DNA of 64,000 nt, taken from a virus. Location of the stretch: positions 34,885 through 98,884 of the IMG/VR virus record IMGVR_UViG_3300034683_000142; one strand, given 5' to 3'. Shown here one piece after another: positions 44,656 to 64,000 of this stretch; position 1 is the stretch's first letter, and each line of letters starts with the position of its first letter. Below the pieces are notes generated by a model. It had not been told where the DNA came from. It did not search any database and saw only the letters and a list, made by a program, of their open reading frames with translations. The position numbers and the translations under genes were made by a program.

Positions 44656-44977
44656 ATTTACATCTTAAACCATAGGCTAAATTAAGATAGCTAAATTCAT
44701 TATCTATGAACTTTTTGTCTGAATAAGGAAATACTTTTCTAAGTATTCTTTTAGAAAATCTCTCCCATTTTTCATATTCTTCTTCAGAGTTAAAAGTATA
44801 ATATTCGTACCATCTTTCTCCTTCTATTGTAGGATTATCTTTAACATAATCTATATCAACTTTATATCTCTTTAATTCTTTATTTATTATTAATCTAACA
44901 GCATCATCTTTAGACATCTTTTTAGAAAAATAGATTAAGTAAAAATCTCTTAAATTTTGTTTTATTTTGTTAACCAC
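44633..44977 (-). CDS. Hypothetical protein (start uncertain)
   Basis: ORF between nrdJ and dut; the start is probably the GTG near the nrdJ stop. Confidence 0.5.
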   Translation of the reverse strand: MVNKIKQNLRDFYLIYFSKKMSKDDAVRLIINKELKRYKVDIDYVKDNPTIEGERWYEYYTFNSEEEYEKWERFSKRILRKVFPYSDKKFIDNEFSYLNLAYGLRCKYGNKNNK

Positions 44978-47900
44978 ATTTACTGTTTCCACAGTTCTTG
45001 CAGATTTTACATCCATTTTCATATACTATAGCTTTTTCTCCGCATTCTGAACAAACCTCATCAGTCTTTGTTCCGTCTTCAATAAAAGACTTTATAGCTC
45101 TAATAACTCCATATTGCCAAGAATTTAGAGATTTATTATTAAATTCTAATTTCTCTATAATATGAATAATATTTTCTAAAGCTACTCCTTCTCTTAGTAA
45201 AGCAGATACAAACCTGGCATAATTCCAATACTCTTTATTAAATATTCTATTTAATCCACCTAATGTATTAGAGTATCCATAATTGTCAACATACCTAAAA
45301 TCATATCTAGATTTTCCTTCAGAAGGTATTTTTATAATAGTACCTTCTTCTATATAAGATGGTATTGGAAATTCATCTAGGTCATTAATACCTGTGAATA
45401 TTTCATATGGTTTACCATCTTTTATACCTATAAAAGCTATCCAATCCTTTTTTTCATTTTTAAATCTTAATACTTTACAAGGTAATTCAGGAGGTCTTGT
45501 AGAATCTTTACTTTCTATGTTAATTAAAATACCAGATCTACTTCCAGCTCTATAAGTTGTTAAACCTTTTAAGTTTTTTTCATAACCTAATATATACAAC
45601 TTATTAACAGTTTCTTTATCTATATTCTCAGGTAAATTAACTGTAGAACTGATACTATGAGTTGTATATTTCTGTAAAATAGCTTGCGTATCTATTCTTT
45701 GTTCTGGTGTTAAATCATTAGCAGTTTGTAGATAATATGGAGATTCTTTATATAATCTGTCCAAATTTTCTACTGACTCATCTTTTAATTCTTCACCATA
45801 TTTTACTTTATACCATTCTCTAAACTTAGGATGAATAACCATATAAGTCTTAAAACCTACTCCATTTTGATCTACAAAATCAGGAGTTTCTCCAGGATTA
45901 CATTTCTTCCTTCTTTGGTAGTATAATGAAAATACAGGTTCACAACCAGAAGTAGTACCTGTTAATATACTTAGAGACCCCGTAGGAGCCACAGTACTAA
46001 TTGAAATGTTCCTCCGACCGTACAGCACCATTTTACTTACTTGTTCTGGATATTCTTTTAGAAGAAATTCATACAACTTGTTACCGCCTTCTAGTCCATA
46101 TTCTCCTGAATAATACTCTAGAGCTCCATTATAAACTGGAAAAGGCCCATCAGTAATTGCTAAATCAATAGAAGCATCTAATTCTGCTTGCAATTTTATA
46201 TGCATTATTCTTTCTACTACTGAAGGATCTCCATATGGAACTCCTAGTGCAGCACACATGTCACCTAATGCAGTTATTCCTGTACCTGTTCGTCTTCCAT
46301 TTTTTCCTACAGCATATACTTTTTTCCAAAGTTCAGGCTCATCATTAAGATCTATAATTCTTTTTATATGCTTTAATTCAACATCAACAAGAGTATCTGC
46401 AATAACCTGAGCTTCATAAAATACGGTATATGCTAGATCTTCATTTATATAAGCTTCTTTTGTAAAAGGATACTTAACAAGACTATATAAGTTAACTGCA
46501 ATTAAGCGACAAGAATCTAAAGCACTAAGTGGAATTTCCTATGATTTAAATTTAATTAAATCATTTCGACTATATCTTCTAAATTAAATTTATAATACAT
46601 ACTTTTTGGAATAATATCTTTAAAAGGTTCTAAGAAATCTTTTATGAACTTAATTATAGTGGGTTTACTTTGTAAGATTATAGCTTTAGGAGTGATGTTA
46701 AAAGTATATCCATACGTTTTAAAGTACTCAAACAAAGCTTCTTGTAACTCTGTATTTATAGTGCTAAAACCTAATTCCCAAGTAATATATTTACCCTTAC
46801 TTATAGAAAAATATCCATCATCCAGAAAATAAAGCATAACTCCAAAAGGTGTTAATTTACTTACTAAATCTTTTTTAGATAAATGTAGTAATCTTGATAA
46901 TTGTTTATGTAAAACCTCTCCAGTTCTATAAACATAAGATTCATAATTATCTTTAGATATTCTCTTTCTTATTTTCTCTAAACCATTTGTTTGAGGGTAA
47001 GCTTTATTAAATAATGAGACCTTAAATTTTAAGTATTCATACTGTTTATAACCATGTTCTATTTTAAAAGAATTTTCTCTTTCTATAGAACCATCTCCTA
47101 ACATTTGAGAAACTAAAATAGCTTCATTATCTTCAGGAGTTGGATTATATTTCTTACTTGGTATTTTAGATAAAGCTAATACTTTTAATTTATAGTAATC
47201 TGATGTACCAAAATATTTTTTTAATGTATTAGCTAATCTTACACTATCATTTATTCCAGTTAAATCATAAAACTCTTTATAAGTTTCTGATTGAACTAAA
47301 CAATCAATTACCTTTTCTTCTGAAGGAATAAGATTATTAGAAATAAACTCACTAACAGGCATTCCAAATAGGCTCTTAAACCTATCTCCAGCTGTCCTTT
47401 TACATATTCCAAATTCTTTTGCAAGAGTTTCATAAACATTATTATTTTTAACTCTTGTACATGATAGGGCTAATTCTTCTGCCCTTTCTTTAAATGTTTT
47501 CATAAATTAATTTTGATTCGTACATAGTCTGTGAACCTTCTCCATATTATAAATAACTTAGGAGCTCGGCTGCTGATTACTTAACGTTATACTATTTTCA
47601 AACATTCACAAATACCATTTCTAGTTTTGTTGTAGTTGTATAACTATCCCAAGTTTCCAGCAATTCTCGAATTTTTTTACTTGCAGCAAAATCTACCGCA
47701 AGGATTTGTTGATATAGGTTTATACTCTGGATATACACTAGCTAAATCATAATCTACAATGTTATCCCAGAAAAGTATTCCTGGTTCAGCCGACTGCCAA
47801 TTAGATTCTATTATAGTATCCCATAATTCTTTAGCTTTTATTTTCTTGATATATCTCTTAGTAGATACTTCATATAGTTTATCATATTCTAATTTACTTA

Positions 47901-49582
47901 AATCTATATCATCTATATTTATATCTACAGGCCATCTTAATAGGTAATCTTTATTACCTTCTACAGCATATATAAAATCTTTAGATACTTTTAAAGATAT
48001 ATTAGCACCAGTTATTTTAGTTAAATCCCTTTTACAAATAGCAAAATCTGGAGAATCAGGATGTCTGATATCTAGGGTTATCATTAATGCGCCCCTTTAT
48101 TTGGACTATATCTTATCTTACTTAATAGTAAGACTTGGGTTCTCTAGCTGGTTATTAAGGGAATCCTCTTTCCCTCCAGTAGTCTCTACACCTTCTTCAG
48201 AATGGTCTGAAGCTCGGCTCGGTATTGTACTATTTATAGTAGTTTCACCGAATTCTCCCAATTCAAGACGCAGCGCATTGTATTTATTATATTTTCTTTT
48301 CAGTACAATTAAATCTTCTTTACCATACATGGCTTTTAAAATTCTTAATACTGAATCTTTCGATGACATTTCTAGGACATAACAATTTTCATCACCTTTA
48401 GGGTGAAGGCTTGATACAACTTTATTCTTTTCAAGTAATTTTTGTATAGCATATAATAGTTTATAAGAACCTGTAAAACATATTTTATACCATAATCTAT
48501 TACGATCTTTTCTATGTCCGAATGTTAAACATCCATCTCCATCAAAAAAACCTAATAGCATATATGGTTGTAAATCTTTTCTTATTCTAGGAAATGTTTT
48601 ATTCTCTTTAGAATTACATAACCTATTTATATCTTCTACTATTTTTCTATTACCTATACTCAATTTTGCATTAGGAAATGTTCTAGATTCTCTATTTAAC
48701 TTGGTATAAGTTCTTACTTGTCCTCCTATTTCTGAGGCTATAAAGTCTAGTATTTCTTTATCTGCAATAGCACATCCATAAACTAAATCAGAATTACTAA
48801 TATACCCATCTGCTAAAGTGTATCCTAAAATATAAGCTTTTTCCTTAGTGTCAATAGTACTAAAGTAATTTTCATTGTAAATAGGTTTTTTATATTTCAT
48901 ATCATTTTCTAAACCATATTTATGAATTCAATAACTTATAGCACTTCTCTTTATATTAACTCCAGGAAGAGCTTCTATTTGTCTAGTACTTAGTCCTTTC
49001 TCTAAGCATTCCATTAAAAATTGTTCGTCCATAATATTTACTCTGTATATTTTCAATATTAAAAAATGTTTCATCTGTTTTACGTCTTCCACTCTGCCCA
49101 ATTGTATTGGTTACATTACTAAATAAATCCATAAATGGTATAATCCCAGTAGTAGTTTTAGCAGCATTATTAACAGAAGCGCCTTTAGGTCTTAAAACTG
49201 AAATGTCTACTCCAACTCCTCCTCTTCTTTTATAGATATTAGCCATATATTTAGCTGTATCAAAGATTTCTGATATAGAATCTTCAGTGCTAAGAACATA
49301 GCAATTACTAAGGCTTACAGGCTTATCAGTACCTATTCCATATAGTACAGAGCCTCCAGGAATTATATATTTAAAATCTTTAAATAAAGTATGTAAGGTT
49401 TCTCTATATGGATTGTTTAGCCTCTTTTTTCCATACTCTGATAGATTTCTATCATAACTAAAAGATCTATCAAACCCTTTTTCCAGTCTTTCAAAAAATT
49501 GTTCTAAACTTTCTCCTTCTTGTCTATACTTGTCTTTCCAAACATCATAGGCTAGTTCATCATGTTTAAAATAATCTTCCAT
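44970..49582 (-). CDS. nrdJ: Class II (B12-dependent) ribonucleotide reductase, split into three exons: 49582-49082, 48093-47695, 46538-44970 (~822 aa)
   Basis: Joining the exons restores GQSGRR|GALMITLDIRHPD and STNPCG|EIPL. Also SLSNCYV, DSCRL, TVAPTGSLS and a C-terminal Cys cluster. Confidence 0.92.
46539..47694 (-). mobile_element. Group I intron 2 in nrdJ (1156 nt)
   Basis: P1 pairing TGCGGT/GCTGCA has a U.G at the splice site. P AATTGCTGGAAA, Q AATCAGCAG, R GTTCACAGACTA, S AAGATATAGTC; terminal G. Confidence 0.9.
46556..47503 (-). CDS. Intron-encoded LAGLIDADG homing endonuclease (between core elements R and S)
   Basis: ILVSQMLGDGSI and MLYFLDDGY motifs. Confidence 0.85.
   Translation of the reverse strand: MKTFKERAEELALSCTRVKNNNVYETLAKEFGICKRTAGDRFKSLFGMPVSEFISNNLIPSEEKVIDCLVQSETYKEFYDLTGINDSVRLANTLKKYFGTSDYYKLKVLALSKIPSKKYNPTPEDNEAILVSQMLGDGSIERENSFKIEHGYKQYEYLKFKVSLFNKAYPQTNGLEKIRKRISKDNYESYVYRTGEVLHKQLSRLLHLSKKDLVSKLTPFGVMLYFLDDGYFSISKGKYITWELGFSTINTELQEALFEYFKTYGYTFNITPKAIILQSKPTIIKFIKDFLEPFKDIIPKSMYYKFNLEDIVEMI
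48094..49081 (-). mobile_element. Group I intron 1 in nrdJ (988 nt)
   Basis: 5' exon ends in U (CGT) and the intron ends in G. Core elements: P AATTCGGTGAAA, Q AATACCGAG, R GTAGAGACTA, S AAGATATAGTCC. Confidence 0.88.
48118..49032 (-). CDS. Intron-encoded LAGLIDADG homing endonuclease with an N-terminal HTH-like region, 304 aa (TGA=Trp at codon 35)
   Basis: ATG at 49032 gives MDEQFL...SAISY-W(TGA 48930-48928)-IHKYGL, in frame with 48118..48900. Motifs AYILGYTLADGYI and MLLGFFDGDGC. Confidence 0.85.
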
Positions 49583-49869
49583 TAATTATTATTAGGATTA
49601 AGTTTTACAATTTTAGGATGATCTTCTTCATCTATAATATCTTCATCAGATATTTCATTATCTAAAGTTGTGTCTTTTTCCTCTTGTTCAGATCTTAATT
49701 TCAAAGTCAGCCAGTTATTAAAGTCAAATTGAGTAACCATTTTTAATACTTTATCCATCTCTTCTTGACTTTTTATATCTGGATTTTCTTCTATAGATTT
49801 TCTTCTTGTATCTGAAATCATATAAGCTCCAAATGATACTAAATCTCTTTCATCAAATAGTGTTACCAT
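49582..49869 (-). CDS. Hypothetical protein
   Basis: 95-aa ORF coupled to the nrdJ start; acidic C-terminus. Confidence 0.6.
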   Translation of the reverse strand: MVTLFDERDLVSFGAYMISDTRRKSIEENPDIKSQEEMDKVLKMVTQFDFNNWLTLKLRSEQEEKDTTLDNEISDEDIIDEEDHPKIVKLNPNNN

Positions 49870-49889
49870 TTTTAAAATTTTATAATTAA

Positions 49890-50153
49890 TTATTTATCAT
49901 CTTTTAGTAATGAATCTAGTTCTTTCTTCCAATCAGGATTATTTTCACTCCAGATAACCTTTTCTGAATCTTCTCCCACTAATTCTACTAGTGGAACTTT
50001 TTTAGTTCCATTCTTTGTAAGAATAGGAATTCCTTTTTTCTTTTCTTTGTAATGACTTAGACTGTAAATTTCCTTCTTTACATTATAGTCTTTAACAATG
50101 TCTAGAATAAATTTACAGTCGTCGTCATACACAATTTTAATTAACTGATACAT
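49890..50153 (-). CDS. Possible glutaredoxin/thioredoxin-fold protein (single Cys)
   Basis: 87 aa next to nrdJ, with DDDC and G-x3-VP patterns but no CxxC. Confidence 0.4.
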   Translation of the reverse strand: MYQLIKIVYDDDCKFILDIVKDYNVKKEIYSLSHYKEKKKGIPILTKNGTKKVPLVELVGEDSEKVIWSENNPDWKKELDSLLKDDK

Positions 50154-50904
50154 TCAATAGTTTTGATAACAGTATTGTTTTATCTGCTATGTTAACTATA
50201 TCTTTTTTATCGTGGCTGATAATGTCGGTAAAAGCATTATATACTTGAAATTTACTAGGATTAATTCCTCCAGGCACAAAATACTTACTATCCGAATCTA
50301 AATATAAATCTTTATATACTTCAATAGGAACAGACGAAGGTATTCTTATTTTATCAAATCCTTTATCATCATAATGACTTATTGTAAAATCTACCCATTC
50401 TCCTAGTTGAATCTTTTTATCCTCACGGACAAAATATTCATTTTTCATTCCCTCTAATACTTTATGCATATTATTTTCCTTTTCAACAAGCTCTTTTAAA
50501 GAACTATAATTTATAGGTTCATCTGGTTTTAATTCTTGAATATTTAACCAAGATGGATCAAATACACATAAGTTTAAACACGCTTTATTTAATACACCTC
50601 TATAAATTTTTGCAACAGGTTTCCTAACATCTAAGCCATATATTAAACCATATGTTTCTGCATGATTATCTACAGTATATTTATCTGGTAATACAGCTTG
50701 TATCCATACTCTATTATATACCACATCTTTAGAATCTTTTGTAAGACTCATTTGATCTGCTTCCTTAACCTGTATAATAAAGTTATCAGTTACTTTACTA
50801 AGTTTCTCAAAAAATGGTTCTGCATATTCTCTAGTAGGTAAGTATTCTCTATTTTTAATTATTGTGCTTTTGCCTTTAAGCAATGCATCTGCACTAATTT
50901 CCAT
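50137..50904 (-). CDS. DUF932-like conserved phage protein
   Basis: KIYRGVLNKACLNLCVF and FQVYNAFTD motifs. Confidence 0.6.
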   Translation of the reverse strand: MEISADALLKGKSTIIKNREYLPTREYAEPFFEKLSKVTDNFIIQVKEADQMSLTKDSKDVVYNRVWIQAVLPDKYTVDNHAETYGLIYGLDVRKPVAKIYRGVLNKACLNLCVFDPSWLNIQELKPDEPINYSSLKELVEKENNMHKVLEGMKNEYFVREDKKIQLGEWVDFTISHYDDKGFDKIRIPSSVPIEVYKDLYLDSDSKYFVPGGINPSKFQVYNAFTDIISHDKKDIVNIADKTILLSKLLNVSVN

Positions 50905-50907
50905 AAT

Positions 50908-52251
50908 TCATTCTTTTATTATGCCGTCTAATGTATCTCCGTTTTTATCTATGAGGGTAAAGTCACATCCCCATTTAGCAAATCCGAAATTAGCATGTAT
51001 CCAATTACTAGAACCAAATAAGCTACTTACAGATTTGTATTTAAAAGCTCTTCCATACGTTGTAGCACTATGATGTAAATCACCTTTTACTACAGTAATG
51101 TCACCTCCTAAATTATGATATCTTATATATTCATCAAAGTATAACTCTGTTCTGTCATTAAGTACAAGGGGAAAATTCTTAAATTGGTCCATATTATCTT
51201 TACCATGTAAGAATATAACAGTTTTATCACCAATAATAAAGTGATCTATAGGCCTAACCGCTACATATGTACTAATACCTTCATGCTCTAGCATTATAGC
51301 TAATGCTGTAATAATACTATGTTCAAAATCTCCACCATGATTTGAATGACCAACAGATACAAAGAATATATCAGAATTTGGATTATTATCTTTTAAATTT
51401 GTAAAGAAACCACTCATTTGTCTTAATAAAACTTGTCCTTGTTCTTTATTAGACATATTTTGTGGAAGAATGTGAGTTGAATCAGGTCTTGAGGTTTGTG
51501 CATTATATCCATCAATTGCATCTCCTAAATTTAAAATAATTATATTTTTAAATGTACCATTATAACTATTTATTTTGTTTAGGATTATATTTAACCTTCT
51601 ATGAACTTCTTCCTCATCATACTTATTATCATATACTCCTTCTTCAGACACATAAGCTCCAATATGCATATCACTTAAATACACTATAATAGTTTCATTA
51701 GAGCTATCTAATTTGATAGTATTAAACTTATCTTTATTTATGTCTTCGGAAATATATTTTGCAGATTCAAAATCTTCTTTAAGTTTTTGATGTTCTAATA
51801 AAAGTTCATTATATTTTTTCTTATATAAATCTCCTTTATCTTGTTCATACTTCTTAAGAAAATCTACCTCTTTCTGCTTTATATGTAATTCTAGTAACTC
51901 TTCGGTTGTTCTAGATTCTAGAACATGAGGAGGAAATGGTACTACAGACTTAGTGACATTAAAAGCACGTAGTATCTTTTTAAATTCAGATACTGTATAT
52001 GGAAAATGTCTAGATATATTCCTCTGAGTAAGATTAGCTCCATCAGAAGAGTACTCTCTATATATTAGTTCCATTTCTTCGTTAGTAAGAAATCCTTCTA
52101 ACGGTCTAGAATCTCTAACATATATCTTAAATCTATAGCCATTTATCTTTCCATCTTCGTCTCTAACTGGTTCTCCTACAGACCTTTGGTCAAATGCTTC
52201 ATCCTGTGAGGCATTATATTCAACTTCTCGTAAATCTTTCTTTTTTTTCAT
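50908..52251 (-). CDS. Calcineurin-like metallophosphoesterase with an N-terminal extension
   Basis: SDMHIG, LGDAIDG, SNH, HGK and GDLHH metal-binding motifs. Ends in TGA. Confidence 0.8.
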   Translation of the reverse strand: MKKKKDLREVEYNASQDEAFDQRSVGEPVRDEDGKINGYRFKIYVRDSRPLEGFLTNEEMELIYREYSSDGANLTQRNISRHFPYTVSEFKKILRAFNVTKSVVPFPPHVLESRTTEELLELHIKQKEVDFLKKYEQDKGDLYKKKYNELLLEHQKLKEDFESAKYISEDINKDKFNTIKLDSSNETIIVYLSDMHIGAYVSEEGVYDNKYDEEEVHRRLNIILNKINSYNGTFKNIIILNLGDAIDGYNAQTSRPDSTHILPQNMSNKEQGQVLLRQMSGFFTNLKDNNPNSDIFFVSVGHSNHGGDFEHSIITALAIMLEHEGISTYVAVRPIDHFIIGDKTVIFLHGKDNMDQFKNFPLVLNDRTELYFDEYIRYHNLGGDITVVKGDLHHSATTYGRAFKYKSVSSLFGSSNWIHANFGFAKWGCDFTLIDKNGDTLDGIIKE

Positions 52252-52288
52252 TATGTAATCTATAAGTTTAAATCTTAAATTAGACTAA

Positions 52289-52317
52289 AAAAGGTGAGGA
52301 ATGTTTCCCCACCTTTG
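52289..52317 (-). terminator. Intrinsic terminator
   Basis: On - strand: AAAGGTG-GGGAAACATTCC-TCACCTTTTTT. Confidence 0.6.
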
Positions 52318-52326
52318 TAATTGTTT

Positions 52327-52908
52327 TTAGTACTCTTCTACGGCAAAAACAAATTTACCCATTTTAGCGGAAGCAGACGGAGTATATTCTCCATAAGCTG
52401 CGTACTTCTGCCCTTCGGTCACCTCTTTAACGATTTCAATTACGTAAGGTTTCCGATTTTCCTTAATAAGTTCCTTCATAAGATCTAAAGCTTGGTCTTT
52501 CTTAGTAGCCTTTCCCTCTACTTTACCAGTAGATATAACAGTTACTTCAGGAACATCTACATCTTCTCCATTTTCATCTTTTACCGTGCGGTATTTTACC
52601 TTAAATTCAGCTTCTTTTATTTGGTAAGTAGTAGTTGTTTTTCTCTTACCTTTAGTAGCCTCATTAATAATTTTATACGGTCGTTCTCGAGTATCTTCTG
52701 AAGCGGACTCCAGAACAATATAAGCCCCTGAATTTCTATTTTCTTTTAAATAGTTTTCAAGGAATTCCGCTAATTTTTTACCACCTTGTGGCTCACCTGC
52801 CTTTTTCCAAGAGAGTGTGGCATTTTTTAATTTCTCAAAAGGAATTACAAATCCTGTTTCTTCATAAGCTTTTTTCTTGCTGTATCCCTGCGATTCTGCA
52901 ATTTTCAT
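52327..52908 (-). CDS. Conserved hypothetical protein
   Basis: 193-aa ORF with its own candidate promoter and terminator. Confidence 0.7.
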   Translation of the reverse strand: MKIAESQGYSKKKAYEETGFVIPFEKLKNATLSWKKAGEPQGGKKLAEFLENYLKENRNSGAYIVLESASEDTRERPYKIINEATKGKRKTTTTYQIKEAEFKVKYRTVKDENGEDVDVPEVTVISTGKVEGKATKKDQALDLMKELIKENRKPYVIEIVKEVTEGQKYAAYGEYTPSASAKMGKFVFAVEEY

Positions 52909-52972
52909 ATTTACATATTACATTAAAAATTGTTAATTTACCATCTACTAGTATTTCCATCTAATTGTATTA

Positions 52973-52980
52973 CAAAGTTA
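52973..52980 (-). promoter_or_regulatory. Candidate Bacteroidota sigma-A -7 element (TAnnTTTG)
   Basis: TAACTTTG in the 190-nt intergenic gap upstream of 52908. No clear -33 TTTG at canonical spacing. Confidence 0.4.
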
Positions 52981-53101
52981 CAACAATTAAAATTCTAAAA
53001 TTGCCTCAACTTTGATAATTTTTATCTGTTTACTTGGTTAGTGTCTAAACATAGTATATGTATATAATAAATCTAAAAATAATTATTATAATAAACTCAT
53101 A

Positions 53102-54010: not shown

Positions 54011-54019
54011 AACTAAAAA

Positions 54020-54394
54020 TTAAAATGGAGTCCATGTATTTAATAACTCCTTTATTTTATTTATAATTTGTTTTGAATCAGTTAATCCATATGAATTAAA
54101 TTTACTAACACCATATGATAAATCATCTACTAACATAGATAAATTTTCTAAAGCATTATAGAAAGAAGTTCCTTCTTTTTCTTTAGTTATTTGTAATAAT
54201 ACATCTAGTGTAGTAAGTTTAGGATTTTTCTCTTTTAATTTATTAGCTGTTAAGGCTACTAATGATATAAGAATTAGTTTATCATCAAACTCATCAGATA
54301 ATAAATTCCCAAATCCAAAACATCTTACATATAACTTAAATCTATCCTCATATGATAACTTATTAATCTCATTAGTTATCTCATCAACATTCAT
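54020..54394 (-). CDS. Hypothetical protein
   Basis: ORF overlapping the exonuclease stop; ATG start MNVDE assumed. Confidence 0.6.
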   Translation of the reverse strand: MNVDEITNEINKLSYEDRFKLYVRCFGFGNLLSDEFDDKLILISLVALTANKLKEKNPKLTTLDVLLQITKEKEGTSFYNALENLSMLVDDLSYGVSKFNSYGLTDSKQIINKIKELLNTWTPF

Positions 54395-55382
54395 AGGCAA
54401 CAAGTATTAATAAATTTTTAAACTCTTCTAAGCCTTTTTTAATCCATTTATCTGATATTTTAAATACTCCAGAATTATATTCTGGAATAGTTTCTATAGC
54501 TAGAATATTAGCTTTATATTTATATCCTTCTAAATTTAAACAGTTATTTAGTAAATATAAATACATTGCCAACTGTCTATAATATCTGTATTTCTCAAAT
54601 GATCCAGGAATATAAATCCCATTAAATTCATTACCCATAAAAAAAGATAAAGGCTTGCCAGTAGATTTTACATCATTAAGAGTTATGATTTTTTGTTCAT
54701 GGTCAATAGTAAAATTATCTAATTTACCTTTTACCTTTACTATTTTATCTCCAACTTGTATCTCTCCTAATATAGCATATTCATTATATACTTCAGGATC
54801 ATTTATAATTCCTTTTGGATACAATGTGCTCATAAATTCATTATTACTTATTATATTAGAAATACAAATATCAAATATACTAGCCATAGACTTAGATAAG
54901 AATATAGTAGATTTGTCTAAACTTTCTTTTACTTTAAGTCTATTTAAATAGAATTCAATAGATTCTTTTATTGCAGTTTTTAATCTTTTACTTGTTAATT
55001 TATCCTTATAATAGTCAGATTTTTCAGAAGCTAATTTTATTGAGTCTTCTATACTATATCCTTCTTTTCTATACAGATAAACATTCTCTGCAAATACTCC
55101 TAATTTTCCAGATGGTTTTCTAATATCAGATATTTCATATTCATCTGGTTGTAAGAGCATACAATGGATACTAGAACCTAATTCTAATGAACTAGAATAT
55201 TTTGACTCTAATCCTTTTTTAAACTTATCTATAGAACCATCTTCTTCAGGATTAATAAGGCTTAGCCTACTATTACTTATATAATCAGAATATTTATCAG
55301 AAAAATATTCTTCATCACTCATTCGTAGGAGTTGTAAACTACCCGGAACTACTTTTAAAGATATTTCATTATCTATTTTCAC
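54384..55382 (-). CDS. PD-(D/E)xK exonuclease (RecE/DUF3799-like)
   Basis: ISNSRL, LGSSIH, KGKLD, DVKST and YYRQLAMY motifs. Confidence 0.8.
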   Translation of the reverse strand: MKIDNEISLKVVPGSLQLLRMSDEEYFSDKYSDYISNSRLSLINPEEDGSIDKFKKGLESKYSSSLELGSSIHCMLLQPDEYEISDIRKPSGKLGVFAENVYLYRKEGYSIEDSIKLASEKSDYYKDKLTSKRLKTAIKESIEFYLNRLKVKESLDKSTIFLSKSMASIFDICISNIISNNEFMSTLYPKGIINDPEVYNEYAILGEIQVGDKIVKVKGKLDNFTIDHEQKIITLNDVKSTGKPLSFFMGNEFNGIYIPGSFEKYRYYRQLAMYLYLLNNCLNLEGYKYKANILAIETIPEYNSGVFKISDKWIKKGLEEFKNLLILVAYEC

Positions 55383-55413
55383 TATTACATACTACTAAAC
55401 ATATTTTATTCAT

Positions 55414-56394
55414 TTATATCTTTTTATTAGGTATTTCAGTGTTTCCAAATATACTTAACTCTCCTGATAATACAGTATTACCAAAAATTCTAGAACATTC
55501 ATATATAAATACATCATCAGATACTTTAGCTTTACCATATACTTTTGCTAGGTCAAATATTTTAGCATAACCTTCTATAACTGCTTCTTCAAAAACCATT
55601 GCATCTCCATATACTTCTGGACTTCCTGTTATAATAGCTTTATTAAATACCTTAGCACCACCATATACTATAGCATTGCCTGATATTTTAGCATTATCAT
55701 ATATTACTGCAAAACCAAATACTCTAGCATTTTCAAATACTTGAGAAAAGTTTTTTAATCTAGCATGATCAAATATCTGTGCATCATCATATACTTTACA
55801 ATTATCTAGTATTTTAGCTTTGCCATATATTTTAGCACTGCCATATATTTCTGCATTATCATATATACTTACTCTATCTTTTACTATAGCATTGTCATAT
55901 ACTTTTGCATTTCCGAATATTTTAGCACTTCCTGATATTTTTGCATTTCCAAATACTTTGGCACTATCATATATGTTAGCTTCTTCTGATATGACAACAT
56001 TATCCATTACTTTAGCTGAATCACGTATTTCACTATGATCTTTTATTATAACATTTCCAGATACTTCTGCATTATCGGTTACTATTGCTTGATCAAGTAT
56101 AATAACATTATCTTTTACCACTGCATTTTTACATACAGTAGCATTATCAAATATTTGTGCATTGCCTTTTATAACAGCGTTATCAAGTATTCTTGCACTA
56201 TCACGTATTACAGCATAATCTTCTATTCTGGCATATATAGCTACATAACCTGAAAGTACTACTGCATTTTCTCCTACAAAGGCACTATCAGCTACCTCAG
56301 CCTTTTTGTATACCCAACCTCCACCATTAGGATGTTGACTCCACTCAGATCTATTTTGTTTTCCATATCTGGCCTCTAATTCTTTAAATGTCAT
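55414..56394 (-). CDS. Hexapeptide-repeat (left-handed beta-helix) protein
   Basis: Dozens of A-x-[VI]-x-[DG]-[DNS] hexapeptides. Likely start MTFKELE at 56394. Confidence 0.8.
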   Translation of the reverse strand: MTFKELEARYGKQNRSEWSQHPNGGGWVYKKAEVADSAFVGENAVVLSGYVAIYARIEDYAVIRDSARILDNAVIKGNAQIFDNATVCKNAVVKDNVIILDQAIVTDNAEVSGNVIIKDHSEIRDSAKVMDNVVISEEANIYDSAKVFGNAKISGSAKIFGNAKVYDNAIVKDRVSIYDNAEIYGSAKIYGKAKILDNCKVYDDAQIFDHARLKNFSQVFENARVFGFAVIYDNAKISGNAIVYGGAKVFNKAIITGSPEVYGDAMVFEEAVIEGYAKIFDLAKVYGKAKVSDDVFIYECSRIFGNTVLSGELSIFGNTEIPNKKI

Positions 56395-56395
56395 A

Positions 56396-56887
56396 TTATT
56401 TATTATTAAAAAATCTATTATACTTCTCCTCAATTTCTTTATATCTTAAAGAATTTATTCTATAAGGAGTTAATATATTGATATTATGAGGTCTAGTTAA
56501 TAATAATGCTGGTAGTCCAGATTCTATAGCTTTTATTACATTACTATAAGAGTCGTCTACCAGCACATCACACCTTCCCTTAATTAAAGTAGCTTTATTT
56601 CCTTTTTGATTGTATAATTGATATATAGGTTTTACAGGAAAGTTATTTTTTAATAACCAATTCTTAGTATATCTTTTACTATTTACCCTTTTAGTACAAT
56701 ATATATGAGGTTCAAAATCCATAGTTTCTAATACTGGTAAACTTTCCCAGAAATTTTTATTATTTCTGAGTTTATATACATTTCTGGTGATTTCATAATC
56801 TCCCTTTTTAGGTTTTCCATATAATCTATAATATGGATTCAAAAAATCCGCAATGCAGTCGTCAATATCACATGCTATCCTTAACAT
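56396..56887 (-). CDS. HAD-family 5'(3')-deoxyribonucleotidase-like protein
   Basis: DIDDCIAD and VLVDDS motifs, plus RPHN. Confidence 0.75.
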   Translation of the reverse strand: MLRIACDIDDCIADFLNPYYRLYGKPKKGDYEITRNVYKLRNNKNFWESLPVLETMDFEPHIYCTKRVNSKRYTKNWLLKNNFPVKPIYQLYNQKGNKATLIKGRCDVLVDDSYSNVIKAIESGLPALLLTRPHNINILTPYRINSLRYKEIEEKYNRFFNNK

Positions 56888-56889
56888 AT

Positions 56890-57141
56890 TTATTTATTGA
56901 ATATATTATTATATAACTCTTCTATTTTATTTTCTGACATAGATTTTGAATATACTGTTTTGTAAAAATAATCTATCTTATCTTCTGGTATAATTTCTTC
57001 TAAAGCAGTTGACAGTGCTTCATCAAAATTATTAAACACAGAATATAAATCAACATCATGTTCTATTGGAACCTCTTTTAGGAGCCTATTATTCTCCAAT
57101 ATATTATTTACTATAATGGAAAAATTATCTAAACTAATCAT
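56890..57141 (-). CDS. Small acidic protein, tandem paralog 4
   Basis: MISLDNF...DLY...EEIIP-x-DK...LYN-x-IF pattern. Confidence 0.7.
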   Translation of the reverse strand: MISLDNFSIIVNNILENNRLLKEVPIEHDVDLYSVFNNFDEALSTALEEIIPEDKIDYFYKTVYSKSMSENKIEELYNNIFNK

Positions 57142-57143
57142 AG

Positions 57144-57395
57144 TTATATTTCAAATATATCATGATATAAGTCTTCTATATTATCTTCTTTCAAATAACC
57201 AGAATACACTATATCATAAAAGTAGTCAGACTTATCTTTAGGAATAATTTCATCTATAGCTGCTGAAAGAGCCATATCTAAATCTTTAACCACAGGATAT
57301 AAATCTATACCATATTTTTTAGATAATTTCTTTGAGAGTTTGTTACTCCTTAATATACCAGATACTAGTATGTTAAAATTTTCTAAGCTTATCAT
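57144..57395 (-). CDS. Small acidic protein, tandem paralog 3
   Basis: Same pattern as the other three paralogs. Confidence 0.7.
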   Translation of the reverse strand: MISLENFNILVSGILRSNKLSKKLSKKYGIDLYPVVKDLDMALSAAIDEIIPKDKSDYFYDIVYSGYLKEDNIEDLYHDIFEI

Positions 57396-57401
57396 AACTC
57401 A

Positions 57402-57653
57402 TTATTCATTAAATATGTAATTATATGCTTCCTTTATTTCACTATCAGTCAAATCATCATATGCTACCATATCGATGAGATAGTCTATTTTTTCTTTTGG
57501 AATAAGTTCATTAAGAACTATATCCAAAGCAATTTCCAAATTTTCTGTTAATGGATAAATATCTATACCATATTTATCATACAGAAATTGTTTAGTATCA
57601 TCATTACTTGCTATAGCACGCACTAAACGATTAAAATCATCTAAATTCATCAT
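57402..57653 (-). CDS. Small acidic protein, tandem paralog 2
   Basis: Same pattern as the other three paralogs. Confidence 0.7.
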   Translation of the reverse strand: MMNLDDFNRLVRAIASNDDTKQFLYDKYGIDIYPLTENLEIALDIVLNELIPKEKIDYLIDMVAYDDLTDSEIKEAYNYIFNE

Positions 57654-57659
57654 ATTCTG

Positions 57660-57920
57660 TTATTCATTAAATATATAATCATATGTTTCTTTTATATCAT
57701 CGTCAGTTAAATCAGTATATATTATCATATCCATGAAATAATCTAATACATCTAATTTATCTTTTGGAAGAATTTCTATTAGAGTTATATCTAAAGCATT
57801 TTCTAAATTCTTAGTTAAAGGATAGATATCAATATCATATCTTTCTGATAGAAAGTCCTTAGTATTAATACTCTCTCTTATATAATGTGCTAATTTAGCA
57901 AAATTATCTAAACTTATCAT
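57660..57920 (-). CDS. Small acidic protein, tandem paralog 1
   Basis: Same pattern as the other three paralogs. Confidence 0.7.
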   Translation of the reverse strand: MISLDNFAKLAHYIRESINTKDFLSERYDIDIYPLTKNLENALDITLIEILPKDKLDVLDYFMDMIIYTDLTDDDIKETYDYIFNE

Positions 57921-57928
57921 ATTTTATT

Positions 57929-58396
57929 TCATCTTTTAGCTGAATAAACAGCTTGTTTTTTATAATCTATTATTGAATAATTATCCCTTAAATAATCTGA
58001 ACCTAATATTCCTACTATATTAAAACCTTGTGTCTCTAAGTCTTTAATAATAGGACTTAAATCTGAAGTAGAAAAAAGGATACGTCTGCCATCTATGATT
58101 GTAGATACCAAAATAGTTTTTAAATTTGAGGTACCTGATATACCTGTTATAATAGTACTAGTTTCTTCACCTTCTTTACGAAATAAATCAGAGTTATTGA
58201 AATACCAAGTACTATCTATAACAGATAAATTAGCTCCAGAATCTACTATAAATAAAACTTTTTTATTTCCTATATCTTTCTCTATAATAGGAATTTTTAC
58301 TTTATTATTTTTGTTGTTTTTAAAATATTCTACATTATATCCACTACAAGATATAAATAAGAGTAAAGACAGTATAATAATAATTTGTTTAGTCAT
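57929..58396 (-). CDS. Retropepsin-like aspartyl protease, predicted lipoprotein
   Basis: Signal peptide ending LLFISC; FIVDSGANLS and GILGSDYL motifs. Confidence 0.75.
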   Translation of the reverse strand: MTKQIIIILSLLLFISCSGYNVEYFKNNKNNKVKIPIIEKDIGNKKVLFIVDSGANLSVIDSTWYFNNSDLFRKEGEETSTIITGISGTSNLKTILVSTIIDGRRILFSTSDLSPIIKDLETQGFNIVGILGSDYLRDNYSIIDYKKQAVYSAKR

Positions 58397-58790
58397 ATTT
58401 AAGTTTTAATAGTTTATAGAATAACTCTTTTGGTATTATAACATATTCTCCTACACTAACACTGTTTACTTCTCTTTTTTCTTGTGCATTTCAGAATATA
58501 GCCAGTGGTTTATCTTTTTTTCCTACTTCAGCATTAAGTTTTTTAACACTAGGATTAGATTGAGTATTTTTACATTGTACATAGAAATCTAACACATTAT
58601 TGGGATCTGCTATATCTATTTTAGCATCATCTAACCTCTTACTTTCAGATCTAGATGTACATAGTTCAGAATCTCTGGTTATTTCCTTTAATTCATTTAC
58701 AATCTTTCTTTCATAAGAACTTCCTTTTCTCTTATTTTTGCTGCCATTTACTTTTTTCTTGGGTTTTTCCTCTAATTCGTTATTTTCCAT
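58389..58790 (-). CDS. Holliday-junction resolvase-like PD-(D/E)xK nuclease, 133 aa (TGA=Trp at 58493-58491)
   Basis: KRKGSSYERKI...DI...VQCKN. Read-through adds WNAQEKREVNSVSVGEYVIIPKELFYKLLKLKYD and TAA, filling the gap to the next gene. Confidence 0.75.
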
Positions 58791-59829
58791 TGAATATATA
58801 AAAATATTTTGTATTATGAATAGTTTTATCTTGTAGTATTAATTCCATATCTTTGATTATTTCATACCTTTGAACATAGTTTGATTTTTTCCATAAATCA
58901 CTAATATCTTTGGCATATTTTCTTTTTATAAATATACATCTCGTATTATAGAGTTTTTTATATTTTTGAGCACCTTTTACTCCAGCTAAATCATTATCAT
59001 ATAAACATATTATATTATTAAAACTATTTTGTAATTTTTCAAATCTAGCTTTATTTATTACAATAGTTTCAGATATAGGGGCAACTGAATTTATCCCTAT
59101 ACTGTATAATGTCATGACATCTTTTAATGATTTAGTTATTATAAGATTTTCTCCAGAAACTGGAAGTTGTCTTATTCCTTGTAACATGGAAGAGCTCCAA
59201 TTACTTAAAAATCTATATTTAGTTTTTGTTGGAAAATATAATCTCCAGAACTCGTCTCCATTTTTACTTTTACCTCCATAATATCCATATATAGAAGTTT
59301 TTTCTGATGAGCCTGTAAAATAATTTCCATTTAAAAACACAGACTTTACGGAATAAACTCTAAATTTTTTTAATATATCATAAGATATACCGAATTCTTT
59401 CCACCAATTTAACTCCTTTTCAGAAAAATCTTTTGCTTCTATTTGTATATTAGCATGTTTAGTTTCTTCTAAAACATTACCAGAGTATTGTATCTTAGGT
59501 GGATTAGTATCTAGTTTAGTATATGGTATTAATCCAAAATCATTAGCTATTATTCTTAAAGATTGATAATAACTACAATGGAATATATTCATAACTACAG
59601 TTGCAGCATCTCCAGAAATTCCTGCAAAATCCTTAAATATAAGAATCCCATTTTTATTTTTATAGAAAGCACAGGTTGGCCTAGTGTCTTTTCTTAAAAA
59701 AGATGGGCATATAAAGAGTCCCTTTTTTACAGGGACTCCTAAATAATGCTCCATCAATCTTTCTTGTCCTATTGTATTATATAGGAATTCTTTAGTAATC
59801 TTTGGAGCTCCTTCATACTTAAACTCCAT
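58780..59829 (-). CDS. DNA primase (DnaG/TOPRIM type)
   Basis: N-terminal CP...RKDTRPTC, IITKSLKDVM, LYDNDLAG and KDISD motifs. Confidence 0.85.
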   Translation of the reverse strand: MEFKYEGAPKITKEFLYNTIGQERLMEHYLGVPVKKGLFICPSFLRKDTRPTCAFYKNKNGILIFKDFAGISGDAATVVMNIFHCSYYQSLRIIANDFGLIPYTKLDTNPPKIQYSGNVLEETKHANIQIEAKDFSEKELNWWKEFGISYDILKKFRVYSVKSVFLNGNYFTGSSEKTSIYGYYGGKSKNGDEFWRLYFPTKTKYRFLSNWSSSMLQGIRQLPVSGENLIITKSLKDVMTLYSIGINSVAPISETIVINKARFEKLQNSFNNIICLYDNDLAGVKGAQKYKKLYNTRCIFIKRKYAKDISDLWKKSNYVQRYEIIKDMELILQDKTIHNTKYFYIFNGK

Positions 59830-59840
59830 TAATTATTCAA

Positions 59841-60539
59841 TTATAGTCCAGAAACATCAAAATCTAAATCTAAGTTACCTACTTCTGGAAAATCCATTTC
59901 GTCATCTACTTTAGTAGGAGTAGCTTTAGCTTCATTGTTCATATTTGATTTTTCATAAGCAGTAAATGCTAAGTTACTTCCTATAAAATTATTTCTAACG
60001 TATGCTCTTCCTTCTTGATTTATTCCAGTAAAATATTTAGGAAATATTACTTTACCTTCTCGATCTTTTACTAATTTTATTTTAACTGTAGCACCGATAC
60101 CTTTATTAAGAATGGCGACTACATTATTTCTAAATTGTTCCCAGTCTTTACCACCTAGAGTTACCTCCCCTTTATCTATTTTCTTTCCCACTTCTGGGAG
60201 AACTGCATCAATTAAATGCTTAAGTAATAGCATCATATTTTCTTTATTTGAAGCAGAAGGTATTTTTTGCTCTTTACCGTCTCTTACTACAGTATTCTCC
60301 CTTCTTTTGGAGTCCTCTGGTCTAGGTTCAAATATAGTATGCTCAAACTGACCTTTGTCATTTGAGAATTTTATTCTTAGTACTCTAAAAGTTTTATCAG
60401 GTTCTTTTCTACCTTGCATGTCTTCAGAAACTATTCCATCGAATCTTACTTCATGTATTTCGTTTCCTGGTAATTGAGGTTTAAATGTAGATTGTGATGC
60501 ATTTGCAGTAATGTTAAAATTAAATCCGTCCATTGTCAT
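59841..60539 (-). CDS. Single-stranded DNA-binding protein (crAss type)
   Basis: Lies between the Sak4-like ATPase and primase; beta-rich with an acidic/hydrophobic C-tail. Confidence 0.55.
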   Translation of the reverse strand: MTMDGFNFNITANASQSTFKPQLPGNEIHEVRFDGIVSEDMQGRKEPDKTFRVLRIKFSNDKGQFEHTIFEPRPEDSKRRENTVVRDGKEQKIPSASNKENMMLLLKHLIDAVLPEVGKKIDKGEVTLGGKDWEQFRNNVVAILNKGIGATVKIKLVKDREGKVIFPKYFTGINQEGRAYVRNNFIGSNLAFTAYEKSNMNNEAKATPTKVDDEMDFPEVGNLDLDFDVSGL

Positions 60540-60546
60540 TTTCTTA

Positions 60547-61095
60547 TTATAACTTAAATTCTAATTCATCTATCTCATAAGTTTCATCACCATCTACAAG
60601 TAATTGTGCATCGACTTCATCTGATAATTCTATAGCTTCTTCTACTGTTTCAGCCACTTTAGAATTAGATACTAGTTTCCACACTCCATCTCTATATTTT
60701 TGTATAGTAAATTCATCTCCAAATTCACCTAATACTGTATTTTGGTTTCCTCTAAAGGAAACAGTTTTAGATTTGGTAAGTTTATTACCAGCTCCTATTG
60801 TATCAAAAGACACATCAGTTCCTATTACAGGAAATAATTTACCTTTATCTTTCTCATATTCAACAACTACTCTAGATTCAGAAGTTAATCCCATTTCATC
60901 TATAGCTTTATTGTTAAATATTAATTTTCCATCCTCTCTTATAATAAGAGGAGTATTTTCCAATTCTTCTATTACTTCTTTCTTCTTTTTAGTAGTAGTT
61001 TTTTTCTTTACTTCACCTTCTACATGAGCTTTTACGTTAGTAACTTCTCCGGTATCAGTGTCTACATCAAAACTTATAGTTATTGCCTTAACCAT
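60547..61095 (-). CDS. Hypothetical protein
   Basis: 182-aa ORF with an acidic tail, in the replication operon. Confidence 0.65.
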   Translation of the reverse strand: MVKAITISFDVDTDTGEVTNVKAHVEGEVKKKTTTKKKKEVIEELENTPLIIREDGKLIFNNKAIDEMGLTSESRVVVEYEKDKGKLFPVIGTDVSFDTIGAGNKLTKSKTVSFRGNQNTVLGEFGDEFTIQKYRDGVWKLVSNSKVAETVEEAIELSDEVDAQLLVDGDETYEIDELEFKL

Positions 61096-61792
61096 TGTTA
61101 TATTCGTCTATTTTTTCTAAAACATATTTTAGATCGTTATCTATATATAAATCTTCAAAACATCCCATAGGAGTTTTTGCTGTGGTTGTGCCATCAGACT
61201 TAGTGATAAATTTATATTCTATTTTCTTACCATTAGCATCTTCAGTTCTTATTACTTCTGTGAATAGTACATATGTGAATAACCCTTCTATAGTTATAAA
61301 AGTGTCCAACATTTTTCCAACAGTCTTAATTTTATAACTAGGATTGGTAGAATCGCCTATATTTTCACTATGAGTAATTACACAGACTTTTAAATCGTCT
61401 CTCATATTCATAATTTCTTTTAAAACTGAATAAAAATTAGCTGAAATTTGAGAGAACTTATCATACCCTTTTTCATTGGCTCTATCCATCATTTCAAATC
61501 CCATAAGATATTGTGCATCTTCTAAAACTACAACCTTTATATCTGGTCTAGTTTTATCTATAATTTTTAAAGCTTGTGCAATTTTCTTTACATCAGAAGT
61601 ATTATATAAATTACCCACAAACTTTTTTGTTTCTGGGTCTTGCTTAAAAAGAGTGTAATTTTTCTTAAAACCTGGAAAAGGCAAGCTTTTTCCAGTAACA
61701 TTAATAATAAAAGTTGATTTTGGATCTAGATTTCTTAATGAAGTGCTCTTTCCAGATCCCGAAGCACCTACAATAGCTATTGATTCAGCCAT
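61088..61792 (-). CDS. AAA_24/Sak4-like ATPase
   Basis: GASGSGKSTS, VVLEDAQY, KIKTVGKMLD and TAKTPMGCF motifs. Confidence 0.8.
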   Translation of the reverse strand: MAESIAIVGASGSGKSTSLRNLDPKSTFIINVTGKSLPFPGFKKNYTLFKQDPETKKFVGNLYNTSDVKKIAQALKIIDKTRPDIKVVVLEDAQYLMGFEMMDRANEKGYDKFSQISANFYSVLKEIMNMRDDLKVCVITHSENIGDSTNPSYKIKTVGKMLDTFITIEGLFTYVLFTEVIRTEDANGKKIEYKFITKSDGTTTAKTPMGCFEDLYIDNDLKYVLEKIDEYNNG

Positions 61793-61795
61793 TAT

Positions 61796-64000
61796 CTATA
61801 ATTTAAAAACATTCCTATCATCGTTATCTATTGTAGTTGATTTATCTGCTCCAGTTAATAATAAATATTCTGAATAATCAGTAATTTCTTCAGGCTTTGG
61901 TAATTCTCTAAACATTCCTATTTCACCATGAAATACTACTCCTTTATTAACATCAGACTTCCCAAACCTGTTTTTAAGTACCATAACCAGCCTAAACCTA
62001 TCTTTAAGGACATTTTGTATAGGATATCCTTCAACTCTTGGTATTTTCTCTCTATATGGATAATATAAAGCTAATACAACTTCAGAGCCATCAGTAGTTC
62101 CTGAAGTATCTTTAAAATCATCGAGTTGAGTAAGCTCGTATCCATTAAGCTTCCTGTCCATAGACTTTTGTCCTCTATTTAACTGCTGAATAAATACACC
62201 AGTTAATCCACATTTATTTCTAAAATATATAAAATAATCTACGACAGTATCTATTCTTTCTTTTTTAGTTCCTGGCCCTGATATTACAATTTTGTTACCG
62301 TGAATGCTTTTTATCACTCACTTCTATATGTCACCATATAGTTCAGCATATATTTTCATCCTAAAGATTAGGATGTAGAGCTCTCGTGGGTATATTATAT
62401 TCTCAATTAAGAGGTTCAATACCTATGCGTTGCATTACTAAATAACTTTTAAATTACTTAGTTAACTCAATGTCATCTTTGTAAAATACATCTTTTTTTC
62501 TACTTAAATAAATAGTACTATCATCGTAGAGAAATTTTTTAAACTTTTCTAAAGAATCTTTTTTTGATACAAATAATCTATACATATCTTTGTAAGATGT
62601 AGAATATTCATCAGATAAAGGTTTTCTCATTACCTTACCAGCTCTTTTTTCTACATTTATTCTTGTGTCTATATTATAGTCATTTATAATAGTCTGTAAT
62701 TTAATAAGGAAATTTTCATTTATAGAAGCTATATTAGCTTTTAAATATTTTCTATCATAAAATACAGTACCATCACCATCGAAATAACCTCTAATAAAAT
62801 GTCTTAATAGAGATTCTTCCATTTCAGGTATTTCTAGTTCTTTATAAGTTTTTTCATATACACATCCTAAATTTATTAAGTTTTTACAGAATAAACTGGA
62901 ACTAATTTTTAAAATAATAGAATTTCCATTTACTATTATATCTTGTTCAGGACATATATAATCTTTTATTTTTTCTAACAATGCTCTATCACTTTCTGCA
63001 TTTTTTAGTTTTATACAGGCTTGATCTTGATGTGTAATACATCCATCAGAATACCAAAAACCAACAATATAGGCTTCAATTTCATTATTAATAGATTTAG
63101 CATCTCATAATAATTCTTTTCTACTAGTTCTTTTTGGATTTTCTACTTTACTAGTTAAACCATACTTTTTAAAGTGATATGATGCAGAAAAGTTATACTT
63201 CTCTCCGATTTGTTTTTGTGTATAATTTCCTTCCTTGTATTCTTTATACACTTCTTTTACTTTTTCTTCTGTTCACATAATTTTTATTTTTGAATTAAAC
63301 ATATTACAAAAATATAAAAATCTGTGGTCAAAAATGTATAAAATACAATTTATTTAAAATAATACACTGTGATGTATTTCAAAGGTTTCCTTTGATTTAG
63401 CTCTATTTTCACTTATATATTACTATATAAGGGGGCTAATAGTTTACCCCATATGATCGATTATAGCTACTTTATATTCTTCTATATCATTTTCTACATA
63501 ATCTTCTTTATGTTCATTGATAGGAATAAAAGTACCAAATCTTTTTAGCCAATCTTTTAATGTGCCATATATATAATTAGGAGATAAGGGTCTATCATAT
63601 ATAGTAAGGGTATTTTCCAGTTTATTTAAAAATGGAACACATTTATTTACTATTTTGAGTTTATCATCACTAATAGGCTTAGTTAATGATAATATTTCTT
63701 CAAAAGTGATAACTACATGATACTCATCATATATATATCTAGATAATAATTTTGCATATAATACTTCAGAAGCCATTTCAAAAGAGTAATATAAAATATT
63801 AACTTTTCTACTTCCAGCATTTTTAATAAGATTATATACAAATATATCTAATCCAAAACTTGTCTTTCCTCCAGAAGTATCGGCTCCTATTGTATATATA
63901 TATCTTCTCTGAATACCATAAAGAACTTTATCTATAGCAGGTAATCCCATAGAAATACCTATATTCTTTCCAGACCTACCATCTTCTATTTGTTTTAGTA
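61796..64000 (-). CDS. DnaB-like (SF4) replicative helicase, split by a group I intron (exons >64000-63446 and 62286-61796; start outside the window)
   Basis: GADTSGGKTS (Walker A) and SFEM. The spliced junction gives IIDHMG-L-ISG; also QQLNR and LKNRFG. Confidence 0.88.
62454..63278 (-). CDS. Intron-encoded LAGLIDADG homing endonuclease, 274 aa (TGA=Trp at codons 2 and 58)
   Basis: ATG-TGA-ACA-GAA-GAA-AAA (MWTEEK), in frame with 62454..62981. Motifs AYIVGFWYSDG and FIRGYFDGDG. Confidence 0.85.
63307..63314 (-). promoter_or_regulatory. Candidate TAnnTTTG promoter inside the helicase intron, upstream of the endonuclease
   Basis: TATTTTTG(TAATA) ~30 nt before ATG 63278, with the same TTTGTAATA context as the 52973 site. 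Confidence 0.35.

Follow-up and report, generated by a model that had tools for sequence, protein, structure and literature searches.

In Agate phages, which are TGA-recoded, an early gene carries a group I intron whose endonuclease prefers TGA, and the in-frame stops should hold back production of this enzyme until late in infection (Borges et al., bioRxiv 10.1101/2021.08.26.457843). The intron endonucleases of phage T4 in td, nrdD, and nrdB, which are early or middle genes, are likewise translated only late, through late promoters and, on early transcripts, a hairpin in the RNA that masks the ribosome-binding site (PMC2988022). Zeta crAss-like phages such as Lera use TGA as tryptophan mainly in structural genes, their replication and virion blocks are oppositely oriented, and they have several homing endonucleases, which differ between near-identical genomes (Int J Mol Sci 2025, PMC12386605). 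Here, a stretch of 64,000 nucleotides (the window) from the IMG/VR virus record IMGVR_UViG_3300034683_000142 is described, in which two intron-borne LAGLIDADG homing endonucleases (HE1 and HE2) and a putative Holliday-junction resolvase carry in-frame TGA codons among replication genes without them. The three are probably late-code genes within an early block, made whole only when UGA is decoded, and the origin of this arrangement is probably permissive.

The IMG/VR viral contig is 98.9 kb long, with an estimated completeness of ~53%; the window covers its bases 34885-98884 and has a G+C content of ~28%. The window comes from a crAss-like phage in whose late, virion block TGA encodes tryptophan; this block occupies the plus strand from position 1 to ~38,700 and the 35 kb upstream of the window. 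Giant late open reading frames (ORFs) of 1,100 to 3,500 amino acids emerge only with TGA read through (code 4), when plus-strand fragments are joined in frame by in-frame TGAs. The early block, on the minus strand at ~38,700-64,000, contains replication and nucleotide metabolism genes, including those for a DnaB-like helicase, a Toprim primase, AAA ATPases, exonucleases, and the ribonucleotide reductase NrdJ.

The 36 early host ORFs (6,749 codons, minus strand) contain 65 TGG codons and no in-frame TGA, whereas the late plus-strand block contains 153 in-frame TGA and 124 TGG codons, a TGA share of 55%. The four nuclease ORFs of the early block, which are HE1, HE2, a third intron endonuclease (HE3), and the resolvase, have four TGA and three TGG codons between them, and they differ from the early host ORFs in a post hoc Fisher test (p = 3.4e-5) and not from the late block in TGA/TGG usage (p = 1.0). 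TGAs upstream of GTG 42797 and in the short overlapping ORFs 46129-46329 and 52778-52960 were counted as non-coding. An earlier note on this DNA had claimed that internal minus-strand TGAs are confined to HE1, HE2, and the resolvase, that the host exons around the introns are free of them, and that the nucleases use TGA more than neighboring early genes do. Each of the codons it named was confirmed, the nrdJ and helicase exons have no TGA, and the excess over early genes holds in this phage. Its description of the block as otherwise TGA-free applies to sense codons in host ORFs only, since TGA ends three early genes (Table 1), the early-block stop codons being 29 TAA, 3 TGA, and 2 TAG. Because sense TGA is absent and TGA serves as a stop in the early block, UGA would be a stop when the early genes are read, and the early block appears readable by a host with the standard code.

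One of the three terminal TGAs, at 50908, was considered as a sense codon joining two ORFs in frame. This was rejected and the codon was taken as a true stop, because relatives terminate at the same residue with TAA, with the next gene in another frame. The exonuclease gene ends with GAA TGA ATT ATG (50902-50910, minus strand), so that the TGA is in frame with the ATG of the next gene, and a fusion of 447+255 amino acids would result if UGA were read as tryptophan there. The TGA stops at 54384 and 57929 have a TAA back-up three to four codons on.

HE2, located in an intron of the DnaB-like helicase gene, starts with ATG at 63278 followed directly by TGA (codon 2, 63273-63275), and a second TGA occupies codon 58 (63105-63107). 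Both lie upstream of the first of its two visible LAGLIDADG motifs. More than 100 full-length homologues of ~274 amino acids span the whole query. Codon 58 corresponds to tryptophan in 12 of 18 aligned homologues, and the protein sequences of the three closest homologues begin with 'MW'. No ATG, GTG, or TTG occurs from codon 58 to codon 100, which is already past the first motif, and the public gene call (P0006), which starts at TTG 62981 and gives 175 amino acids, would yield a product without the first catalytic motif. The claim that HE2 is not made at full length under the standard code is therefore upheld by the ATG-TGA opening, the TGA at codon 58, and the lack of a start before codon 100.

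HE1, located in the first of two nrdJ introns, starts with ATG at 49032 and carries its TGA at codon 35 (48928-48930), upstream of the first of two LAGLIDADG motifs. Its full-length homologues have ~301 amino acids, begin with 'MDKQFL', and have W or Y at the position of codon 35. The closest homologues of HE1 and HE2, retrieved from ENA/Logan, are 70-80% identical to them, and the N-terminal helix-turn-helix (HTH) of both proteins is kept in standard-code homologues. An in-frame ATG at 48900 (codon 45), from which the public gene call (P0123) runs for 260 amino acids, precedes both LAGLIDADG motifs, so the lock on HE1 could leak. The claim that HE1 is blocked under the standard code thus stands for the HTH-bearing full form, which needs UGA decoding, and not for the shorter form that ATG 48900 allows.

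The resolvase starts with ATG at 58790 and has TGA at codon 100 (58491-58493). Forty-three related loci were fetched for comparison, and relatives can be aligned with all but the last four of its 133 residues (1-129). At codon 100, 38 of 41 loci have TGG, whereas TGA is found in L001, which is near-identical to the window, and in the distant relative L041, and CAC in L043; the TGA represents a single recent TGG-to-TGA change. Downstream of it, G114, E115, K121, F124, and Y125 are invariant, as are E27, D59, and Q72-x-K74 elsewhere in the protein, with Q instead of E in the E...D...E-x-K signature. The Pfam PDDEXK_15 score is 23 bits, under the cut-off of 27, and no sequence match was found in the PDB. 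The fold in the structural model (predicted local distance difference test score, pLDDT, 80) extends to residue 133, and the known structure most similar to it is Hje (1ob8; Z = 6.8, root mean square deviation 3.2 over 92 residues), ahead of Hjc chains and restriction enzymes; a Foldseek search of the PDB with the model gave nothing significant. According to the model, a resolvase stopped at codon 100 would lose two strands and the C-terminal helix.

The claim that the nuclease TGAs are coding is borne out in that each sits where homologues have tryptophan. Judged from these comparisons, the TGAs in HE1, HE2, and the resolvase would be true tryptophan codons in conserved full-length proteins, and full-length HE2 and resolvase, together with HTH-bearing HE1, are predicted to need UGA decoding.

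Table 1. Predicted features of the early block, with positions in the window
Feature	Position	Strand	Remarks
HE1, LAGLIDADG homing endonuclease, 304 codons, N-terminal HTH	48118-49032	-	Pfam LAGLIDADG_3, E = 4e-10
HE2, LAGLIDADG homing endonuclease, 274 aa, N-terminal HTH	62454-63278	-	Pfam LAGLIDADG_3, E = 1.8e-14
HE3, LAGLIDADG_2 endonuclease, 315 aa	46556-47503	-	Pfam LAGLIDADG_2, E = 1.3e-7; 0 TGA, 1 TGG
Hjc-like PD-(D/E)XK nuclease, putative Holliday-junction resolvase, 133 aa	58389-58790	-	phrog_244 'Holliday junction resolvase', E = 6e-9
nrdJ (ribonucleotide reductase), three exons: 49082-49582, 47695-48093, 44970-46538	44970-49582	-	0 TGA
nrdJ intron 1, group I, ~988 nt	48094-49081	-	missing from L001; borders +/-3 nt
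nrdJ intron 2, group I-type, 1156 nt	46539-47694	-	missing from L001; U/G borders
Helicase upstream exon, runs off window	63446-64000	-	Pfam DnaB_C; 0 TGA, 1 TGG
Intron in DnaB-like helicase gene, group I-type, 1159 nt	62287-63445	-	missing base for base from L001
Helicase 3' exon	61796-62286	-	phrog_19 DnaB-like helicase; continuous with upstream exon in L001; 0 TGA
TGA as stop codon	50908-50910	-	exonuclease gene 50908-52251
TGA as stop codon	54384-54386	-	early gene end
TGA as stop codon	57929-57931	-	early gene end

The same pattern recurs in the homing endonucleases of relatives from several lineages, and most related resolvase loci keep TGG. In L001, a different helicase intron encodes a GIY-YIG endonuclease (5 TGA, 1 TGG), and the gene for a LAGLIDADG endonuclease (3 TGA, 1 TGG) lies next to a PolA fragment; the host ORFs of this contig have no TGA. 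In L004, with protein identities of 72-82%, a GIY-YIG-NUMOD1 ORF with 4 TGA and 2 TGG lies in a TGA-free early block, and the resolvase keeps TGG. L044 and L046 represent another TGA-recoded lineage, in which LAGLIDADG, GIY-YIG, and HNH endonucleases all carry TGA; the UvrD-like helicase and DNA ligase of L046 carry it as well. Among orthologous HE1-type endonucleases, TGA occupies codon 35 in the window, codons 35, 39, and 172 in L044, and codon 39 in L046. In the distant relative L041, TGA is also found in the helicase, primase, and ribonucleotide reductase genes. Most other homologous endonucleases belong to standard-code phages and have TGG only. Apparent TGAs in the endonucleases of L058, L065-L068, L072, L080, L101, and L117 proved to be the ORFs' own stops in standard-code phages and were dropped.

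Two relatives, G001 and G002, were fetched whole; neither is TGA-recoded, and they were used for the TAG parallel only. G001 is TAG-recoded, and its early ORFs have no TAG among 406 glutamine codons; its LAGLIDADG endonuclease has three TAG codons and its resolvase none. The early block of G001 (L208-L210, 105-172 kb) contains three more TAG-bearing ORFs, encoding a DUF723/treble-clef zinc-finger protein of 241 amino acids (5 TAG), an HTH protein of 348 amino acids (2 TAG), and a protein of 192 amino acids with no family named (4 TAG). The 182-kb G002 (L212-L221) has 22 tRNAs, one of them with the anticodon CTA (amber suppressor), and no in-frame TAG or TGA was found in its large late ORFs, which matches the 'unused suppressor' of some Zeta crAss-like phages (PMC12386605). 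No match to a late protein was obtained in the genomes of five relatives.

The borders of the introns were fixed by L001, which is 98-99% identical to the window and lacks all three inserts base for base. Its helicase frame is continuous, and exact removal of the insert restores the host ORF. All three inserts, including nrdJ intron 1, follow a 5' exon with a terminal U and have G as their last base (in the helicase gene, T at 63446 and G at 62287). The exact sequence AAGATATAGTCC, the classic group I 'S' element, is found near the 3' end of nrdJ intron 1 at 48103-48114, with a matching R-like element at 48179-48188. In addition, 16 of the 29 pairs predicted for this intron show compensatory changes in an alignment of 17 homologous intron 3' parts. 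The final ~50 HE1 codons overlie the covarying ribozyme core (48094-48276, minus strand), inside which the ORFs of several homologues end. The strong 'protein' conservation of these codons is therefore largely RNA conservation, and the conserved peptide 'EGVETTGG' of HE1 is probably its by-product. An S element with one mismatch is found in nrdJ intron 2 at 46567-46578. No match to Rfam Intron_gpI (RF00028) was obtained at the gathering score or at E values up to 10, including searches with the introns alone, because ORFs of ~900 nt probably interrupt the model, and no splice joint was seen in contigs over nrdJ from RNA runs. On these sequence features, the three inserts are classed as group I introns with LAGLIDADG ORFs, and their self-splicing is putative.

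Once the inserts are removed, the nrdJ exons have 167, 133, and 522 codons, and the pieces match positions 1-78, 81-212, and 295-523 of the Pfam profile Ribonuc_red_lgC. HE3, in the second nrdJ intron, had been proposed as a natural control. It cannot serve as one, since with a single tryptophan codon its missing TGA is uninformative. In one wastewater DNA run, 241 other bases stand at the nrdJ intron-2 site (46517-47731) in place of the 1.2-kb intron with HE3, and they may represent an ORF-less intron. The window and L001 (L001:1-6100 versus window 63869-64000) have host genes 98-99% identical and wholly different sets of introns and endonucleases, with three such elements in the window and at least two others in L001, which indicates fast turnover and resembles the differences between near-identical Zeta crAss-like genomes. 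Elsewhere in the early block, four tandem genes encoding 83-86 amino acids (56890-57920, minus strand) are 35-56% identical to one another and have no family match.

Under the standard code, translation would end at codon 2 or 58 of HE2, codon 35 of HE1, and codon 100 of the resolvase, and the whole proteins would appear only once UGA is decoded as tryptophan, presumably by a later-acting phage suppressor system; we infer that such decoding arrives late. TGG-to-TGA changes, favored at 28% G+C, would persist in the endonucleases and the resolvase, where they are not purged because the former are selfish and the latter is not required before packaging, and the same changes would be lethal in replication genes. 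Late-only synthesis would then be a consequence, whether selected or not. The lineage-specific TGA of the resolvase, the tryptophan codons that swap between TGA and TGG at the same sites among close orthologues, and the late-gene-like TGA share of the nucleases in this phage all fit relaxed constraint, which would account for the pattern as well as a selected lock. Several results weigh against this probable history. The ATG at 48900 could yield a 260-amino-acid HE1 with both motifs early in infection, and no suppressor tRNA(UCA) was securely identified on the ~53%-complete contig, in which ARAGORN with default settings found no tRNA. In addition, endonucleases pooled over several lineages have 43 TGA and 13 TGG codons (77%) versus 153 and 124 (55%) in the late genes (p = 0.003), which hints at selection over drift, although the pooled count mixes genomes with different baselines. 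The earlier note had gone further in this direction and regarded the genetic code as a safety catch, TGA having been fixed because DNA-cutting enzymes made early are harmful, with the code switch as an evolved timer. Besides the pooled share, such selection would explain the presence of a recoded stop in four endonuclease families (LAGLIDADG, GIY-YIG, HNH, and NUMOD1-type) across several TGA-recoded lineages, the use of a second recoded stop in the TAG-bearing LAGLIDADG endonuclease of G001, and the ATG-TGA opening of HE2, and it would accord with the significant TGA preference of the Agate intron endonuclease (Borges et al., bioRxiv 10.1101/2021.08.26.457843) and with the restriction of T4 intron endonucleases to late infection by different mechanisms (PMC2988022). 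A selected catch is nevertheless rather unlikely. Internal TGA is absent from the exonuclease genes 50908-52251 and 54384-55382, so that some DNA-cutting genes fall outside the pattern, and the TGA-bearing helicase and ligase of L046 indicate that it is not nuclease-specific. The resolvase has TGA in just 2 of ~12 lineages and no TAG in G001, and the swapping of codons between orthologues and a TGA share equal to late-gene usage in this phage likewise speak against a selected catch. What stands of the claim is that the whole proteins need UGA decoding; its extension to nucleases at large does not, given the TGA-free exonucleases and the lineage-specific TGA of the resolvase. It is improbable that the resolvase was deliberately late-coded, so as to delay the cutting of branched replication intermediates until packaging, with the code switch timing a non-selfish gene; if true, stop-codon recoding would here serve a housekeeping purpose.

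Two further explanations are both very unlikely. If UGA were tryptophan from the start of infection, in a code-4 host or through a pre-existing suppressor, the TGAs would be ordinary tryptophan codons, as might be suspected from the TGA-bearing helicase, primase, and ribonucleotide reductase genes of L041 and from the failure to find the switch machinery on the incomplete contig. However, none of the 65 tryptophan codons of the early host genes is TGA at 28% G+C, and three early genes terminate with TGA at the very place at which relatives have TAA (confirmed for one, 50908); the avoidance of sense TGA and the use of TGA stops in the early block argue against constant decoding of UGA as tryptophan. 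Alternatively, the TGAs might be real stops in degenerating genes, or the shorter proteins from downstream starts might be functional, as the public calls of HE1 and HE2 would have it and as the retention of both LAGLIDADG motifs in the 260-amino-acid HE1 product would permit. Such decay or truncation is hardly credible for frames that are otherwise open for 274-304 codons at 28% G+C, with TGAs falling on conserved tryptophan positions and the HTH kept in standard-code homologues, and it would leave HE2 without its first catalytic motif and the resolvase without the invariant residues of its tail past the TGA.

The preferred explanation, in which the three genes become whole only when UGA is decoded, calls for a suppressor, and Rfam also found no tRNA. 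When introns were allowed, ARAGORN reported a doubtful tRNA-like gene, interrupted by a 138-nt insert, where the two blocks meet (38838-39063, minus strand). Its 7-bp acceptor stem is perfect and a T-arm is present; the program labeled it Thr(GGT) with a mismatched anticodon stem, and an anticodon arm is missing from its minimum free energy fold. UUCAAAA (UCA) and AUCCAAU (CCA) both occur in its 3' part. This gene may be an opal suppressor, its anticodon being uncertain.

Like the Agate phages, this phage has an intron homing endonuclease with in-frame TGA for tryptophan in an early standard-code gene. It differs from them in belonging to a crAss-like clade with a virion RNA polymerase found in wastewater and subsurface samples, in having several endonuclease families and introns and one ORF that opens with ATG-TGA, and in carrying TGA also in a non-mobile resolvase gene. 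Moreover, in this genome taken alone, the nucleases do not use TGA significantly more than the late genes do (4/3 versus 153/124). DNA of the window was also found in subsurface, activated-sludge, and wastewater runs, and no close DNA match to it was found among the named phages of the 'phages' collection. The code of the endonuclease genes was not reported for the Zeta crAss-like phages (PMC12386605). Whereas T4 blocks its intron endonucleases by promoters and a hairpin, the block in this phage would come from codon meaning.

The idea of late-code endonucleases has already been published for another phage group, so no new question is opened, and this phage is a further example. It offers introns with exact borders, a sister genome free of them, endonucleases of several families, and a counterpart recoded at TAG. 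Its lesson for annotation is that gene callers using a single code shorten endonuclease and resolvase ORFs in the standard-code blocks of recoded phages, as in the public calls of this contig, which give 175 and 260 amino acids instead of 274 and 304. For the biology of recoded phages, it adds to the view that two codes are run per infection, in which case genes lying among the early ones may nevertheless be part of the late translation program.

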